DNA of 62,580 nucleotides, the filler included, from Nitrospinota bacterium (GTDB lineage: Bacteria; JAUXIQ01): NCBI GenBank assembly GCA_030620925.1. It is 13 parts of 13 records of this genome, joined end to end, with 100 filler letters (N's around TTAATTAATTAA, not from the genome) between each part and the next. Parts side by side here need not be neighbours in the genome. Positions count along the whole stretch, not along the records: positions 4,184 to 10,090 come from JAUXIQ010000147.1; 12 more parts are not named here. The stretch is one strand, 5' to 3'. Positions 3,187-10,404 of this stretch are shown piece after piece. Both the position numbers and the translations under genes were made by a program. Position 1 is the first letter of the stretch. Every line of letters starts with the position of its first letter. Below the pieces are notes generated by a model. It made no database searches and was not told the origin of the DNA. It saw only the letters and a list, made by a program, of their open reading frames with translations.

Positions 3187-4083
3187 TCACTTGCCGCAGC
3201 AACGTTTGTATTTCATGCCGCTGCCGCAGGGGCACGGCTCATTGCGTCCGACCTTCTTGCCTTCCCGTCGAACCGTCTTCACAGCGGTGCTCCCACCCTG
3301 CGCTTCAGGAGGGGAAGCGGTGGGGATCTCTCCGCGATGCTCAAAGGTTCGGCTTTGCCTGCCCATGGTGTCTTCCCGTTTCTCATCCTCTTCAACGAGG
3401 GTCATCTTGCTCAAGTATTCTACGGTTTCCTCTTTGATACGCTCCACCATATCCATGAACATGTCGTAGCCTTCCCTCTTGTATTCTATAAGAGGGTCTT
3501 TCTGGCCGTAACCGCGGAGGCCTATACCTTCCTTGAGGTGGTCCATGTTGAGGAGGTGGTCCTTCCACTGGTTGTCGATCACATGGAGCATGACCATACG
3601 CTCGATCTCTTTCATATGCTCGGCGCCGTTTTCCTTCACCTTCTGCAGGTAGTTGTTCTTAACTGCATCCTGGATGTGTTCCCTCATCTCGTCCCGGTCC
3701 ATCTCGACCACCTGAGGTGAGTTAGTGAGGTCCACCACGATACCGAACAATCCGAATATACTCTCCTCCAGACCTTCGAGGTCCCACTCGTCTGGATAGA
3801 GCTCCTCCCCGGCGTGTTTCGCCATCGGGTCTTCAACCAGTTCCTCCATCATTTCCAGGATATTTTCGCCGAGGTCTTCCCCATTAAGGATCATGTGCCG
3901 CTGCTCGTAGATCACTTCCCGCTGTTTGTTCATCACGTCATCATATTCGATAAGGTGCTTGCGAATATCGAAGTTGTGACCCTCGACGCGCTTCTGCGCG
4001 CTCTCAATGGCCTTGGAAAGAAGATTATGCTCTATGGGCTGGCCATCCTCCATGCCCAGCTTCTCCATGATGCCTGAGATGCG
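3187..4083 (-). CDS. secA: preprotein translocase SecA, C-terminal part (5' truncated at contig end)
   Basis: AQKRVEGHNFDIRKHLIEYDDV, LRGYGQKDPLIEYKREG and the SEC-C motif GRNEPCPCGSGMKYKRCCG. Confidence 0.98.
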   Translation of the reverse strand, partial: RISGIMEKLGMEDGQPIEHNLLSKAIESAQKRVEGHNFDIRKHLIEYDDVMNKQREVIYEQRHMILNGEDLGENILEMMEELVEDPMAKHAGEELYPDEWDLEGLEESIFGLFGIVVDLTNSPQVVEMDRDEMREHIQDAVKNNYLQKVKENGAEHMKEIERMVMLHVIDNQWKDHLLNMDHLKEGIGLRGYGQKDPLIEYKREGYDMFMDMVERIKEETVEYLSKMTLVEEDEKREDTMGRQSRTFEHRGEIPTASPPEAQGGSTAVKTVRREGKKVGRNEPCPCGSGMKYKRCCGK

Positions 4084-4183
4084 NNNNNNNNNNNNNNNNN
4101 NNNNNNNNNNNNNNNNNNNNNNNNNNNTTAATTAATTAANNNNNNNNNNNNNNNNNNNNNNNNNNNNNNNNNNNNNNNNNNNN
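4084..4183. other. artificial contig spacer, first of 12
   Basis: N44-TTAATTAATTAA-N44 (all-frame stop linker). Repeated at 10091, 13958, 18185, 22159, 28123, 35967, 39497, 45588, 49955, 55235 and 59525, each 100 bp. Confidence 0.99.
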
Positions 4184-4362
4184 CAGCGTAAAGGCGGTTT
4201 CAAAGATTTCCTGAAAGCCCGGGACGGCGACTTCCTGCCCGAACCCTTCGGGCCGAAGTCTGCGCCGAAAAAGTAACGGGGCCAAATTCATATTCCATAC
4301 TACCGGGCCGTTTCCGACGGTCAGTGACTGAGTCCACCCTTCAGGCGGGAGAAAAATTGTTC

Positions 4363-4410
4363 TTGACACCTTTCGCCTGATCGGTGATAATACCAACTGG
4401 TTGGTATTAT
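4363..4410 (+). promoter_or_regulatory. sigma70 promoter with overlapping palindromic TetR operator
   Basis: TTGACA(4363)-17 nt-GATAAT(4386). Perfect 11-bp inverted repeat ATAATACCAAC-TG-GTTGGTATTAT at 4387-4410. Confidence 0.8.
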
Positions 4411-4431
4411 AGATAGAAGGATGATCGATAA

Positions 4432-5025
4432 ATGGATAGTTATACTCAGAAGAGAGAACATATCGTCAAAACCGCCGCCAGGCTGGTGCACGTCAACGGG
4501 TTCAACAACACCAGCATAGACGACGTCTTGAAAGAAGGCGGCGTGGGTAAGGGCCAGTTCTTCTACTACTTCAAGAACAAGGAAGAGCTGGGATACGCCA
4601 TCCTGGATAGCCAGTCGAAGTCCACCGCCGAGAGATTGTGGGATCCCGCCTTTAACAGCGACCTTGACCCCCTGGGCAAGATATACAGGTTGCTGGATAA
4701 CGTGGTGAAAGTCCATCGGGAACGGGGATGTACCGGAGGATGCCCTATAGGCAGCATGGCCCTGGAGATGGGAGACATACATGAGGGTTTCAGGAAAAAG
4801 ACGGACGGAGTTTTCCGTTCCTGGGCCCGGAGGATAAAAAAGACTCTCCGTGAAGGGGTGAAAGACGGCCAGATAAGGGAAGATGTCAACGTCGATGAGC
4901 TGGCTGATTTTATTGTCGCCTCCATACAGGGGGCCATTCTGCTTTGCGTGGCCGGTAAGGATATAAGGGTGATGCGGAGATGTTTCCGGAACCTTAAGAA
5001 ACATCTGGAGTCTTTGCGGGTCTAG
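4432..5025 (+). CDS. TetR/AcrR-family transcriptional regulator (NemR/LmrA-like)
   Basis: N-terminal HTH GFNNTSIDDVLKEGGVGKGQFFYYFKNKEEL; C-terminal GCTGGCPIG motif. Confidence 0.93.
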   Translation: MDSYTQKREHIVKTAARLVHVNGFNNTSIDDVLKEGGVGKGQFFYYFKNKEELGYAILDSQSKSTAERLWDPAFNSDLDPLGKIYRLLDNVVKVHRERGCTGGCPIGSMALEMGDIHEGFRKKTDGVFRSWARRIKKTLREGVKDGQIREDVNVDELADFIVASIQGAILLCVAGKDIRVMRRCFRNLKKHLESLRV

Positions 5026-5170
5026 TATTTTTGTGAATATTCACTATACGGGCCGGTTGGTGTTGGGATTGGATAAGTCCGGACCGGAGTAAAAGAGGTA
5101 TCCGAGGATGACGTCACCGGGAAGGCGAAGGAGGTTTTCATTCTAGGGATTATAAAGAAGGAGATAAAAC

Positions 5171-6154
5171 TTGCAATATGATGAATTGATGGAAACGGCC
5201 CTTATGAAGATGGAAGAGAAGGGGGCGCTCAAGCGGTACACGGGTAAGGGAGCCGAGACCGGTTATGCCGGGAGATACAACAGAGAAATTTTCAAGGCCT
5301 TCGGCTTCAAGTTCAGGATGATAGATGCTGTAGCCGCCGATACATCCATGACGCTGTTCGGCAGACAGTTCAAGACCCCCGTTATGTGCGCTGCCTTGTC
5401 AGGGATGACGGATATCACCGATGAGCCTTTAGCTAAAATAGCGAAAGGGGTTTCGGAAGCGGAATCCCTGATGTGGGTGGGTATCACAAACGAGGAGCAA
5501 TTCAGCAGTGTCCTTGCCACTGGAGCGCCCACGGTACGCATAGTAAAGCCCTTTGCGGATATGGAGAAGATGTATGGTGAAATCAGGCAAGCCGAAGACG
5601 GAGGGGCGTTTGCCGTGGGCACGGATATAGACTTTTTCTTCGGTGGAAAGGTCGGGGAGAGGATGTTTGCCCCTGCCGCCATGGGTCCCAAGAATAGCGA
5701 AGAACTCAAGGAGCTCATCTCAGCCACCCGGTTACCCTTCATCTTGAAAGGGGTGCTCAGTGCGGAGGATGCTCGGCGGGCCGTCGATTTGGGGGCCGGA
5801 GGGATAGTGGTTTCCAATCACGGGGCGGCCATTATAGACTTCAGCGCCCATCCCCTGGAGGTGCTGCCCGAAATAAAAGAAGCAGTAGGGGATAAGATAC
5901 CGGTGTTTGCGGATAGCGGGTTCTTGAGGGGTTCGGACATTGTTAAAGCGCTGGCCCTGGGGGCGGATGCCGTTTGTGTGGGTAAGGCTCTCATTATGGG
6001 ACTGGCGGCCAATGAGAGCGATGGGGTCAGGGAAATGGTGGAGATATTGACCGAGGAAGTGCGCCGGATTATGTCTGTTACCGGATGTCCTGATCTATCC
6101 AGTGTTGATGAGTCTATCCTGGTGAGGAGAAATCTTTTCCTGCAGGAAGACTGA
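5171..6154 (+). CDS. FMN-dependent alpha-hydroxy-acid dehydrogenase/oxidase family protein
   Basis: PFILKGVLS, GIVVSNHG, DSGFLRGSDIVKALALGADAV. AAGGAG RBS and TTG start. Confidence 0.88.
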   Translation: MQYDELMETALMKMEEKGALKRYTGKGAETGYAGRYNREIFKAFGFKFRMIDAVAADTSMTLFGRQFKTPVMCAALSGMTDITDEPLAKIAKGVSEAESLMWVGITNEEQFSSVLATGAPTVRIVKPFADMEKMYGEIRQAEDGGAFAVGTDIDFFFGGKVGERMFAPAAMGPKNSEELKELISATRLPFILKGVLSAEDARRAVDLGAGGIVVSNHGAAIIDFSAHPLEVLPEIKEAVGDKIPVFADSGFLRGSDIVKALALGADAVCVGKALIMGLAANESDGVREMVEILTEEVRRIMSVTGCPDLSSVDESILVRRNLFLQED

Positions 6155-6210
6155 ACCCGGAATTTAGGTCTTTTAACGCAGTTCAAACTTTATTAGAGGA
6201 GAACAGAAAG

Positions 6211-7068
6211 ATGATCGACGGATTTAAATTCTGTCCACCAGGGCTTCCCGACCGGCTTCAGCAGATGAAGTTCGTGGAGCATGAAGATATTCCCTGGGCA
6301 CCCGTGAACAAGAAGATAGAAGACTGCAAGTTCGCTATCCTCTCCACCGCGGGTATCTCCATGAAAGGGGATGTTCCATTCGATATGGAGCGCGAGTATA
6401 AGGAACCTACCTGGGGCGACCCGACTTTCAGGGTGATTCCAAAGGATGCCAAGCAGGCTGACCTTGAGGTAAATCATCTGCACATAAATACCAGAGATAT
6501 CGAAAAGGACTTCAACTGCGCCTTCCCTCTCGACCGTTTCAAAGAGCTGGAAGAGCAGGGACGGATAGGCTCCTTCGCCGAGAATAACTACTCAATAATG
6601 GGATACCTACCCACCCCTCATACCGGTGAGCTTATCAAAGGGACTGCTCCTGCAATAGCCGATAAGATGAAGGCGGATGGTGTGGATGCGGCGTTTATGG
6701 CCCCCGTCTGACCGCTCTGCAACCAGTCCGTGGGACTGGTTCAGAGGATAGTTGAGGAAGCAGGCATTCCCACCATATCCCTGACTCTGCTGCCGTTCAT
6801 CACCCGCAAGGTGAAGGTTCCCAGGGCTCTGGCGATTGAGTTCCCCTTCGGCCATCCTTTCGGGAAACCTTTCGACAATGAGCAGCAGCTCAGCATCATA
6901 AACGATGGTTTGAGGGAGCTGGAATCCATCCAAGAGGCGGGCACTATTCTGGACCTTCCTTATAAGTGGCCCGAAGAGGACTTCAAGAAGCAGGACTGGT
7001 GGCCGGAGGAGCACCCGCCCATAGTCAAGTTCATGCAGGAACAGCTAGCCAAGAAGAATAAGAAGTAA
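6211..7068 (+). CDS. PrdB/GrdB-family reductase selenoprotein B, 285 aa with Sec167
   Basis: ORFs 6211..6711 and 6730..7068 are in the same frame, separated only by TGA 6709-6711. Read-through gives DGVDAAFMAPV-U-PLCNQSVGLVQRIVEEAGIPTISL. Family motifs GDPTFRVIP, DFNCAFPLDRFKEL and VPRAL..FPFGHPFG are present, and a SECIS hairpin follows the UGA. Confidence 0.92.
6715..6746 (+). promoter_or_regulatory. bacterial SECIS element
   Basis: CTCTG-C-AACCAGTCC-GTG-GGACTGGTT-CAGAG: a 5+9 bp stem with one bulge. The apical loop starts with G, with 18 nt between the UGA and the loop. Confidence 0.85.
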
Positions 7069-7073
7069 GAACA

Positions 7074-7125
7074 TTGAGGGAACCCTTTTGAAAAAGGGTT
7101 CCCTCAAACTCCCCCCAAAACTTTT
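7074..7125. repeat. intergenic palindromic repeat, family A (probably also the terminator of the selenoprotein unit)
   Basis: Perfect 16-bp inverted repeat TTGAGGGAACCCTTTT-GA-AAAAGGGTTCCCTCAA plus ACTCCCCCCAAAACTTTT flank. Related copies at about 7233-7331, 36689-36718, 42778-42831, 54340-54483 and 60753-60790. Confidence 0.75.
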
Positions 7126-7333
7126 GTCATTGTCGATTGGTGCTTTCCCTCACTGACGTTCTGGATAATGTTTATTAGGTCTATTCCTATTGGCGGTGTT
7201 CGGATTAGTTTACCCTGAGCGGCATCATACCCAAAAGATTCGGAGGGAATTTGCCCCGCGGAAGGCGGGGTTTTCAAAAGGGTTTCCTCAGTAGCATGGG
7301 GAAGATATTTTTATAAAAAAGTTTCCTCAAACA

Positions 7334-8491
7334 TCAATAGGAGCGTGGCAGGCCCAACGATTCGGCAATGAAATTGCGGGCCATGTCGTTACTCACCGGA
7401 CTGAAAGTGCCCAGCCGCGCGTCGCGAAAGTAGCGCTGCATGTCCTGCTCCATAAGGTAGCCGTGCCCCCCCAATATGTGCATCCCAGTGGAAGCGGACC
7501 TGAATGCGACCTCGGAAGCTATCATCTTGGCCATGGTGGCCTCGTAGCCGCAGGGTCGGCCGAGAGATTGCAGCCATGCCGCGCGGTATACCTGCCACCT
7601 GGCGCACTCCACCTCCGCGGCTATATTGGCGATGCGATGCTGGATGGACTGGAATTGGCCGATGGGTTTATCGAAAGCGTGTCGCTGTTTGGCGTATTCC
7701 AGCATGTCCTCTAAAGCCGCCTGGGCGATGCCTACTCCCATGGCCCCCAGGGTTATTCGCTCGTTGTTGAGGGTTTGCAGCAGGTGGTACCAGCCCTTGT
7801 CTATCTGCCCCAGGAGGTTCGTCTTGGGGACCTTCACATCTTGCAAGATGATATGGTTTATGCCAGATGCGCGCATGCCGAACTGGTTCAGGCGCTCCAC
7901 GGTGATGCCCGGGCTTTTCATGTCGGTGATGATCAGGGACAGCCCGTGAGATTTCTTGGGAATGGGCTGGCCCGTGCGGGCCACGGTGACCATGAAGTCC
8001 GCTTCATGGGCCAGGGTGATAAACATCTTCTCCCCGTTGATTACGAAGTTATCCCCGTCATACTCCGCCCGGGTGGTGAGTGAAAGGACGTCGCTGCCGC
8101 CGCTGGCTTCCGTCAATCCCAGGGCGTAGAGTATCTCCCCTCTGGCCAGCCTGGGCAGATATTCCGCCTTCTGCTCGGGGCTTCCGAAATAGTCTATGGA
8201 TTTACCCCCGAAGCACATGGATACCACGTAGGCCAGGGCGCCGGCGGTGAGTCCCCTCGCTAATTCCTCTATCAGAATGGTCATATCCATTTCCGTGCCG
8301 CCGGTGCCGCCATACTCCTTGGGGAGAGGCAGACCCAGCCAGCCCATTTCCGCCATTCTATTCCACAGCTCGCGGGGGAATCGGCGTTGTTCGTCGCACT
8401 CCCGCGCATAAGACCTGGGGAACTCTTTTTCCAGAAGTCTCCGGACAGAATCCTTTAGCATCTGTTGTTCTTCGCTGAAATCGAAGTCCAT
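7334..8491 (-). CDS. acyl-CoA dehydrogenase
   Basis: GLTEASGGSD, NGEKMFIT, RHAFDKPIGQFQSIQH, ILGGHGY. Confidence 0.95.
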   Translation of the reverse strand: MDFDFSEEQQMLKDSVRRLLEKEFPRSYARECDEQRRFPRELWNRMAEMGWLGLPLPKEYGGTGGTEMDMTILIEELARGLTAGALAYVVSMCFGGKSIDYFGSPEQKAEYLPRLARGEILYALGLTEASGGSDVLSLTTRAEYDGDNFVINGEKMFITLAHEADFMVTVARTGQPIPKKSHGLSLIITDMKSPGITVERLNQFGMRASGINHIILQDVKVPKTNLLGQIDKGWYHLLQTLNNERITLGAMGVGIAQAALEDMLEYAKQRHAFDKPIGQFQSIQHRIANIAAEVECARWQVYRAAWLQSLGRPCGYEATMAKMIASEVAFRSASTGMHILGGHGYLMEQDMQRYFRDARLGTFSPVSNDMARNFIAESLGLPRSY

Positions 8492-8766
8492 TCCTATTTC
8501 CCTCCCTCAGGAAAATCGATCTCTTAAAGTAACGAAATAAATATTGCGAAACGCCGACGGTTAAGCATATTTTATTAGATAGCGCCGCACAAGGGAAGTT
8601 CCAATACTCTCCATTATAATTATATTTCACATTTACCGGTACATTCCATGAACATGATCATCTATTGCATCGTCTCAAGGGCCGATGCGCAGGTTGTAAT
8701 AAATAACGTTGGATGTTAAAATTAATTTAGCTTAATTATGGCGTCTTTTCTACGGAGGCATCCGGA

Positions 8767-10090
8767 GTGATAAATACCGATTTCCTGGTGGTGGGCAGCG
8801 GCATCGCAGGGCTTTCCTTGGCCCTCAGGGCTTCTGAAAAGGGATCGGTGGCGGTTGTTACCAAAAGGTCACTCGAGGAGTCCAGCACCAAGTATGCGCA
8901 GGGAGGTATTGCATCGGTACTCAGCGAGGAAGACTCCTTCGACCTCCATATACAGGACACTTTAGAGGCCGGAGCGGGGCTCTGCCACGAGGACGCAGTG
9001 CGGGTGCTGGTGGAAAACGGGCCCCAGCGGATAAAAGAGCTGATGGAATGGGGGGCCAAGTTCACCTTTCGGGAGAATGAGGGCGAGATGAGCACGCTTG
9101 ACCTGGGCAGGGAGGGGGGGCATTCCCGCAGGCGCATAGTCCATGCCGCAGACCTCACCGGCCTCGAGGTGGAAAGAGCTTTGATCAAAGAGGTGGCCTC
9201 GCGACACAACGTGCACATTTTCGAGTACCACATGGCCATAGACTTCATCACCAGGGGAAAGCTGGAAGAAGATGTTCCCCTCGGTTCTCCGGAGGACACC
9301 TGCTTCGGTATCTACGCGCTGAACACTGAGGAAGGAACGATCGAGACTTTTCTTTCACCTGCCACCATGCTCGCCACCGGGGGGGCGGGAAAAGTCTACC
9401 TCTACACCAGCAACCCCGATGTGGCCACCGGCGACGGCGTAGCCATGGCCTACCGCGCCGGAGCCCGGATCGCCGACATGGAGTTCATTCAGTTTCATCC
9501 AACTTGTCTTTTCCATCCGGAAGCGAAGTCTTTCCTCGTTTCAGAAGCGGTGCGAGGCGAGGGGGGCATACTCAAACTCAAAGACGGCTCGACGTTCATG
9601 GAAAACTATCATCATCTTGCTTCTCTGGCTCCCAGGGATATTGTTGCCAGGGCCATTGATAACGAGATGAAGAAAGGCGGAGACGACTACGTGCTGCTGG
9701 ATATAACCCATCTCCCCGGGTATCAGATAAGAGAGCGTTTCCCGAATATATACAAAGAGTGTCTCTCTTTCGGTTACGATATGACTGATGAGCCTATACC
9801 CGTGGTACCTGCCGCCCATTATACTTGCGGCGGAGTGCTCACCGACCTCTGGGGCAGGACCAACATCAAGGGGCTCTTCGCTTGCGGCGAAGCGGCCTGC
9901 ACAGGGGTGCACGGCGCAAACAGGCTGGCCAGCAACTCGCTCCTGGAGGCGCTGGTCTATTCTGAAAGGGCCTTCAGAGCGGCATGTGAAGAGAGAGTGG
10001 AAAGAAGCCCCGAAATCCTGGACGTGCCCAAATGGGATACCGGCAAGGCGGTGAACAGCGACGAATTGGTGGTGGTGTCACATAACTGGG
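8767..10090 (+). CDS. nadB: L-aspartate oxidase (3' truncated)
   Basis: GSGIAGL, STKYAQGGIA, REGGHSRRRIVHAAD, FIQFHPT, LAPRDIVARAI, HGANRLASNSLLE. Confidence 0.96.
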
Positions 10091-10404
10091 NNNNNNNNNN
10101 NNNNNNNNNNNNNNNNNNNNNNNNNNNNNNNNNNTTAATTAATTAANNNNNNNNNNNNNNNNNNNNNNNNNNNNNNNNNNNNNNNNNNNNAAGCTGTTTT
10201 ACGGCCTATCGGCCCTGAGTACGTCTTGCAGGAAAAGTCTCCTGGCAGGTGGACGGACGTCTTAACTTTCGGCCCTGAATAGACCAGCAAACGGAAATCG
10301 TGCAGGTCTTATTGTGCGTAGAGAGGAAACCTCTCAGGCCGCTATACCTGATTTGCCCTCGGTTTTATGCTATGCGTTCCATCTATTGAATGGCCTTTGT
10401 AGGG

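Follow-up and report, generated by a model that had tools for sequence, protein, structure and literature searches.

The locus at positions 6211-7068 raises the question of whether a single in-frame TGA terminates a small gene or is read as selenocysteine (Sec) within a longer one. Two ORFs occur here in one frame, 6211-6711 (166 aa, ATG start) and 6730-7068 (112 aa, GTG start), and their sole separator is one TGA at 6709-6711. Reading this codon as U joins them into a product of 285 aa, ...AFMAPV-U-PLCNQSVGL..., with U as residue 167. Both the split frame and the read-through product had been put forward in a preliminary description of this DNA, and both were recovered as claimed. We regard 6211-7068 as one gene, with UGA as Sec, coding for a 285-aa selenoprotein of an orphan PrdB-like type, at a probability of roughly 0.85. 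The comparison of related sequences speaks strongly for Sec decoding.

The window, that is the whole stretch of 62,580 nt that was analysed, consists of contigs of a Nitrospinota MAG (2,504,022 bases in 445 contigs; completeness 89.47%, contamination 3.55%) strung together by pairs of 44-N runs, and is not one molecule. Because the window joins separate contigs, gene adjacency across the N junctions is meaningless. The selenoprotein gene is located on contig G000:C300, corresponding to window positions 4184-10090. A SecA C-terminal fragment at 3187-4068 seems to be truncated where its contig stops, at 4083. The closest relative of the encoded protein is found in a MAG labelled 'uncultured Nitrospinota' by NCBI (here the sister MAG, locus L025), with 80% protein identity, the same TGA and the same length. 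The features of the window discussed below are:

4084-4183, 10091-10190 and ten more: contig junctions, N filler
4432..5025, plus strand: TetR-family regulator, first gene of a conserved three-gene block (Pfam TetR_N and TetR_C_13; same place in L025)
5171..6154, plus strand: FMN-dependent (alpha-hydroxy-acid type) dehydrogenase (Pfam FMN_dh, 236 bits; conserved upstream in L025)
6195..6202, plus strand: Shine-Dalgarno-like AGAGGAGA, read from the sequence, its GGAG core ending 9 nt before the ATG at 6211
6211..6708, plus strand: selenoprotein gene, codons 1-166 (pN/pS 0.17 against the 80%-identical sister copy)
6709..6711, plus strand: UGA, probably read as selenocysteine, residue 167 and first position of U-P-L-C
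6712..7068, plus strand: selenoprotein gene, codons 168-285 and TAA stop (7066-7068); homology to the PrdB model continues to residue 253
6715..6746, plus strand: SECIS-type hairpin inside the coding sequence, from the fold of the RNA after the UGA and from covariation
7074..7107, strand not assigned: terminator-like hairpin with a 15-bp palindrome, between the convergent selenoprotein and acyl-CoA dehydrogenase genes

The translation signals are arranged around the pair of ORFs as around one gene. In the sister locus, GAGGAGGAG occupies the position equivalent to AGAGGAGA. Inspection of the sequence ahead of the GTG at 6730 revealed no Shine-Dalgarno-like sequence, and this GTG is the loop of the hairpin itself. 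The terminator-like hairpin at 7074-7107 follows the second ORF only, and L025 retains it by way of compensatory changes.

The preliminary description had expected homology to PrdB/GrdB proteins to run unbroken across the UGA. This was borne out by the NCBIfam model TIGR04483 (PrdB), which spans the UGA in a match of residues 29-253 to positions 20-234 of the 238 in the model (E 4.5e-49, 167 bits). A scan of genome contigs with the single protein as query returned one locus. As synonymous sites are saturated between the sister copies, selection is given in proportions: pN/pS is 0.17 over codons 1-166 and 0.128 over codons 168-285. Downstream of the UGA, third codon positions hold 56 of the 77 differences from L025, and this substitution pattern indicates that purifying selection persists past the UGA. 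The AlphaFold2 model, built on a 59-sequence alignment, predicts a single domain spanning the UGA (mean pLDDT 94.1, pTM 0.93), with Sec167 in a loop joining a beta-strand (160-164) to a helix (170-183) that is opened by Cys170. Four columns are invariant among the 59 aligned members, namely D100, P106, U/C167 and R205. A usable solved structural relative did not emerge from the searches of the PDB by sequence (nothing under E 0.29), by Foldseek against the PDB (none at E <= 0.001; query-normalised TM-score never above 0.31) or by a wide VIA-align search. The best match of the latter, a LacI-type regulator at Z 8.8, belongs to the generic LacI/periplasmic-binding/SDR-like alpha/beta matches that form the background level of this tool.

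The relatives of the protein show what occupies the position of the UGA, and how it has been handled in databases. A protein collection clustered at 90% yielded 386 matches at E <= 0.001, the best 120 of which were examined. All 120 are fragments of 156-205 aa that break off at the UGA and span 47-58% of the query; the top entry is the window's own product, 166 aa long. The splitting by gene callers that had been anticipated is thus evident both for this gene and for these relatives. In an exhaustive search of representatives, the best 150 were scored at the column of residue 167, where Cys or Sec had been predicted. Cys is present in 57, while 61 end before the residue (the same alignment offset in 51), four have a gap, one starts after residue 167, and the remaining 27 carry another residue (S in 8, G in 7, D in 4, W in 4, E in 2, R in 1 and N in 1). 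The Cys-form homologues are single polypeptides covering both halves. Tryptophan stands at the Sec column in the representatives P0126, P0147, P0175 and P0269, and glycine in P0142, P0163, P0164, P0172, P0190, P0224 and P0243; these may be Sec genes translated under a code with TGA as a sense codon.

Searching the DNA of 401 genomes with a profile produced 58 family matches in 42 of them. An in-frame TGA is present in 53 of the 58, two of which also contain an in-frame TAG (L066 and one match in G396), and five have no stop. The phylum search around G040 covered only two genomes. Among the 33 family loci that were read, the TGA falls at the same alignment column in 32, and the remaining one is a Cys form. 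The motif in the 32 Sec forms is UxxC in 29, UxxD in two and UxxxC in one, so that the resolving Cys is not universal. The two loci with Asp in its place are L028 (G001:C106) and L066 (G117:C108), with the motifs U-P-L-D and U-P-H-D, respectively.

Bacterial SECIS elements are recognised, in bSECISearch-type approaches, as a stem-loop directly 3' of the UGA whose apical loop contains a G and keeps a constant, short spacing from that codon. Refolding of the RNA after the UGA in the window gave the G-first hairpin that the preliminary description had drawn: an outer stem of 5 bp (6715-6719/6742-6746), a one-base bulge at 6720, an inner stem of 9 bp (6721-6729/6733-6741) and the loop GUG (6730-6732), which starts 18 nt after the UGA. 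The 61-nt stretch has a folding energy of -25 kcal/mol (z = -2.34), and four of 200 shuffles are at least as stable; by energy alone, the hairpin is only moderately unusual. An Rfam scan of 6500-7000 at E <= 10, run as the SECIS search suggested earlier, returned no SECIS family, giving only chance eukaryotic and archaeal matches. Part of the stem is moreover forced by the conserved peptide N-Q-S-V-G-L.

The hairpin rises above chance through comparison, that is, through its recurrence in the same register in relatives and through covariation, the latter missing in Cys forms. When the 45 nt after the UGA were folded in the 32 distinct Sec forms, the apical loop started 17-18 nt after the UGA in 27, a G was among the first two loop positions in 30, and an apical stem of 7-9 contiguous pairs was present in 25. 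The window hairpin and the Sec forms thus show a stem-loop of the bSECISearch type. With the structure of the window imposed on 31 of the 32 Sec forms (L059, which has a one-codon insertion, was left out), 70.3% of cells pair, a value reached by none of 500 shuffles. The covariation score is 0.293 compared to 0.140 in shuffled alignments (again 0 of 500 as high), and all slid registers are worse. Pair 21:37 is UA in 14, CG in 12 and GC in two Sec forms, and pair 25:33 is UA in 13, AU in 8, GC in four and UG in three; the swaps at 25:33 couple the first base of a Ser/Thr/Ala codon with the third base of a Gly codon. Across the family, the inner stem alone is conserved.

The Cys control was derived from the metagenome scan by alignment, in which the pattern had C at the Sec column and hence recovered Cys forms only (14 loci). 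It comprises 12 sequences, two of the 14 being identical to others over this stretch; L071, the Cys form from the genome search, is unmatched by the motif pattern and left out. In these 12 Cys forms, which encode a similar peptide, pairing reaches 46.4% of cells, a level attained in 308 of 500 shuffles, and covariation scores 0.103, attained in 181 of 500; both figures come from a small set drawn from a different subclade than the Sec forms. In fixed register, the inner stem retains a mean of 7.19 of its nine pairs in the 32 Sec forms, compared to 5.79 in the 14 Cys forms. Median folding energies are -17.8 kcal/mol in Sec and -14.0 kcal/mol in Cys forms; since this separation is weak (one-sided Mann-Whitney p = 0.06), the pair counts were relied on instead. 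Third-position differences from L025 are rarer in the 12 SECIS codons (6712-6747; 3 of 12) than elsewhere downstream (53 of 106), which fits an RNA-level constraint on synonymous sites in what is a small sample.

The selA, selB, selC and selD genes predicted for this organism are represented in the MAG by selA (611 bits) and selB (415.5 bits), neighbours on C407, by two copies of selD and by a tRNA-Sec (78.3 bits, anticodon TCA, called tRNA-SeC by ARAGORN). All of these score above the curated cut-offs, and they sit on other contigs of the bin than the selenoprotein gene. The selD copies (L010, G000:C134:3689-4615, and L011, G000:C51:87-1013; 398 and 383 bits) each carry one in-frame TGA, and SelD is therefore itself taken to be a selenoprotein in this MAG. 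TGA is the commonest ordinary stop, ending 13 of the 24 longest non-overlapping ORFs of the window, including both genes flanking the selenoprotein gene. The code is thus standard, and the UGA at 6709-6711 needs a local signal. By the standard bacterial mechanism, the hairpin at 6715-6746, within the coding sequence just after the UGA, would recruit SelB and tRNA-Sec, and these would decode the UGA as Sec.

Three other accounts of the locus have to be weighed against this one. If the TGA were a real stop, there would be two small genes here, or a pseudogene produced by nonsense mutation or sequencing error. This is highly improbable given that 32 of 33 loci of unrelated genomes have the TGA in the corresponding column, as has the 80%-identical sister copy, that the codons beyond it remain under purifying selection, and that Cys-form homologues extend as single polypeptides over both halves, even though translation table 11 does yield two ORFs and gene callers report the 166-aa product. 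The start of the second ORF, the GTG at 6730, coincides with the hairpin loop without a Shine-Dalgarno-like sequence before it, and the modelled fold is that of one domain. We find it just as hard to credit that ribosomes insert Cys, Trp or Gly at the UGA, by near-cognate suppression or genome-wide reassignment. The ordinary use of TGA as a stop, extending to the gene immediately upstream, argues against this, as do the full Sec machinery in the MAG and a hairpin that covaries in UGA forms only; the tryptophan and glycine residues at the Sec column in four and seven representatives, which could be taken in its favour, are perhaps gene calls made with TGA as sense.

The third account accepts a selenoprotein and holds it to be a genuine PrdB of a D-proline reductase (Stickland-type) complex, with its partner genes on parts of the MAG that were not assembled. 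The top NCBIfam match is TIGR04483 PrdB (E 4.5e-49), many relatives are named 'D-proline reductase (dithiol) PrdB' by JGI, and the completeness of the MAG is merely 89.47%. The match falls well below the equivalog cut-off of that model, however (167 versus 300 bits), and the neighbours are TetR and FMN dehydrogenase genes rather than prd genes. PF09338, the pyruvoyl subunit PrdA/GrdE, was not found in the sister MAG or in this MAG, where absence is unproven given 89.47% completeness and 445 contigs; the same search recovered it in all four control genomes with long GrdB-type matches. Family members occur in 42 genomes, and PF09338 is present in 11 of these and absent from 31; restricting the comparison to the 37 with a completeness of 90% or more and a contamination of 5% or less leaves 28 without it. 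For each of the ten long, low-scoring GrdB-type matches, a PF09338 gene is located no more than about 2.5 kb away, which holds for none of the 48 short-type matches, and none of 92 flanking ORFs at 31 loci belongs to PF09338. A genuine PrdB is accordingly very unlikely. The preliminary description was right as to the PrdB/GrdB relationship, with the qualification that the protein is PrdB-like and not PrdB, since it misses the cut-off and no PrdA was found.

The selenoprotein is therefore placed more broadly. It is a member of Pfam PF07355 GRDB (35.7 bits against a gathering threshold of 22), and it misses the cut-offs of the TIGR01918 selenoprotein B subfamily (41.7 versus 65.45 bits) and of TIGR01917 GrdB (36 versus 602 bits), the latter match being limited to model positions 218-429. 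The Sec-containing UxxC motif of PrdB is present as U-P-L-C at residues 167-170. The protein falls in a short PrdB-like branch of the GrdB/PrdB superfamily (PF07355). With no pyruvoyl partner (PrdA/GrdE) beside it, we do not count it among the subunits of D-proline or glycine reductase. The label 'D-proline reductase PrdB' is probably wrong for this short orphan branch.

Evidence on the role of the protein comes from its genetic surroundings and from the model. The TetR, FMN dehydrogenase and selenoprotein genes form a same-strand block common to the sister MAG, beyond which the genes differ. The FMN dehydrogenase gene ends in an ordinary TGA 56 nt before the selenoprotein start, no terminator-like site is predicted between 6154 and 6211, and the two genes are probably co-transcribed. 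An ORF on the minus strand at 4321-5004 (227 aa) matches no Pfam family and shares 48% identity with an ORF of the sister MAG; as it lies antisense to the TetR gene (4432-5025), it is considered a conserved shadow ORF rather than a gene. The FMN_dh neighbour was seen in the window and the sister MAG only, and neighbours elsewhere vary widely: the same-strand upstream genes include an Old-Yellow-Enzyme-type flavin oxidoreductase (L028), an aldo/keto reductase (L070), a FAD-binding oxidoreductase (L051) and two HSP20 genes (L065, L073). As Sec167 is placed in a strand-helix loop and Cys170 is the first helix residue, the chemistry suggested by the motif and the model is most likely that of a selenol nucleophile resolved by Cys170, whereby the selenol of Sec167 would attack, form a Se-S bond with Cys170 and then be re-reduced. 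From the neighbours it may be guessed, with low confidence, that the protein acts as a reductase dependent on Sec, within a module for small-molecule, electrophile or peroxide stress.

The MAG encodes a second PrdB-like selenoprotein, 34% identical to the first and with the motif U-P-L-C-H-R-A-V-V, whose gene lies 14 nt downstream of a gene for a 164-aa peroxiredoxin. The latter matches AhpC/TSA over its full length (117-130 bits) and has Sec at its peroxidatic site (F-T-P-V-U-T). The loci concerned are:

L024:1545-2036 and L024:866-1528, minus strand: adjacent selenoprotein pair, on G000:C8, outside the window
L059:964-1425, L061:2230-2727 and L029: further loci for the peroxiredoxin pairing

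The peroxiredoxins were found by a same-strand neighbour scan that included read-through ORFs, the both-strand version giving mostly noise. In this subclade, four of the five loci have a peroxiredoxin/PrdB-like pair, with three unrelated genome families represented, and the pairing goes unmentioned in the available portions of PMC2398784 and PMC13188914. Taken jointly, the observations allow a tentative proposal, which we consider possible rather than probable: the short PrdB-like proteins would be separate, stand-alone Sec-dependent reductases without a pyruvoyl subunit that defend against reactive small molecules, the copy in the window working with the co-transcribed FMN dehydrogenase under a TetR switch, and the paralogue clade serving as the dedicated redox partner of the Sec-peroxiredoxin encoded upstream.

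The family itself has been recognised for some time. With 42 genes, 'Proline reductase PrdB' (motif UXXC) ranked third in abundance among the selenoprotein families of the Sargasso Sea survey (Zhang et al. 2005, PMC1088965), and the GOS data contained 235 Sec forms and 110 Cys homologues of the PrdB family (Zhang and Gladyshev 2008, PMC2398784), according to the available parts of these papers. 'Proline reductase' selenoproteins have also been described in Deltaproteobacteria that are not Stickland fermenters, namely Anaeromyxobacter, Geobacter and an Olavius symbiont (PMC1794560, PMC1976440). In the available portions of later sources, a 2016 survey counts proline reductase selenoproteins in 110 organisms (PMC5029168), a review from 2026 includes D-proline reductase as TIGR04483 with UxxC (PMC13188914), and BSepDB places NCBI-labelled Nitrospinota MAGs (GTDB UBA8248) among the most selenoprotein-rich bacteria (PMC13326102). 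The portions available of these papers do not discuss the missing PrdA, and those of PMC1088965, PMC2398784, PMC1794560 and PMC1976440 do not comment on the gene neighbours of PrdB-type selenoproteins. A literature search for 'PrdB-like' together with 'selenoprotein' found nothing.

The gene is a further member of a long-known, widespread selenoprotein family and would not surprise a selenoprotein specialist. As surveys since 2005-2008 have ranked the family with the most abundant selenoproteins of the environment, this is an ordinary find, and the epithet 'hidden' given to it in the preliminary description does not hold for a family recorded as selenoproteins since 2005. Its value lies firstly in annotation, in that one 285-aa selenoprotein (Sec167) should be called in place of a 166-aa fragment and a leftover ORF, a correction that extends to most of its database relatives, given that the best 120 of the 386 matches are all fragments. 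The known range of the PrdB-like family further gains a sparsely sampled lineage, and the in-frame SECIS of the family gains clean comparative support.

Compared to known systems, the protein resembles the clostridial D-proline reductase PrdB (TIGR04483) in size (the model has 238 positions) and in the presence of Sec in UxxC at the same column, judging by the UxxC entry in the available part of PMC13188914. It differs in that no PrdA was found with it and in its lack of a prd operon, the context being instead one of TetR and FMN dehydrogenase genes. With GrdB, GrdF and GrdH it shares PF07355 and Sec at the homologous site, but their models comprise 431-435 positions, and the window protein matches only the C-terminal part (approximately 209-429) at 36-46 bits. 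GrdB proper has about 430 aa with an N-terminal domain, as opposed to the 285 aa of the window protein, for which no PF09338 neighbour was found. As in thioredoxin-type CxxC/UxxC proteins, the model places the nucleophile at a strand-to-helix connection and the partner Cys, three residues on, at the start of the helix, a placement which suggests Se-S redox cycling, although the predicted fold differs from that of thioredoxin and gives generic three-layer alpha/beta matches only. The closest correspondence is with the environmental PrdB family of the Sargasso Sea and GOS surveys (pfam07355), with which the protein shares the Pfam family, the UxxC motif and the mixture of Sec and Cys forms; nothing essential sets it apart, the window member simply coming from a sparsely sampled lineage.
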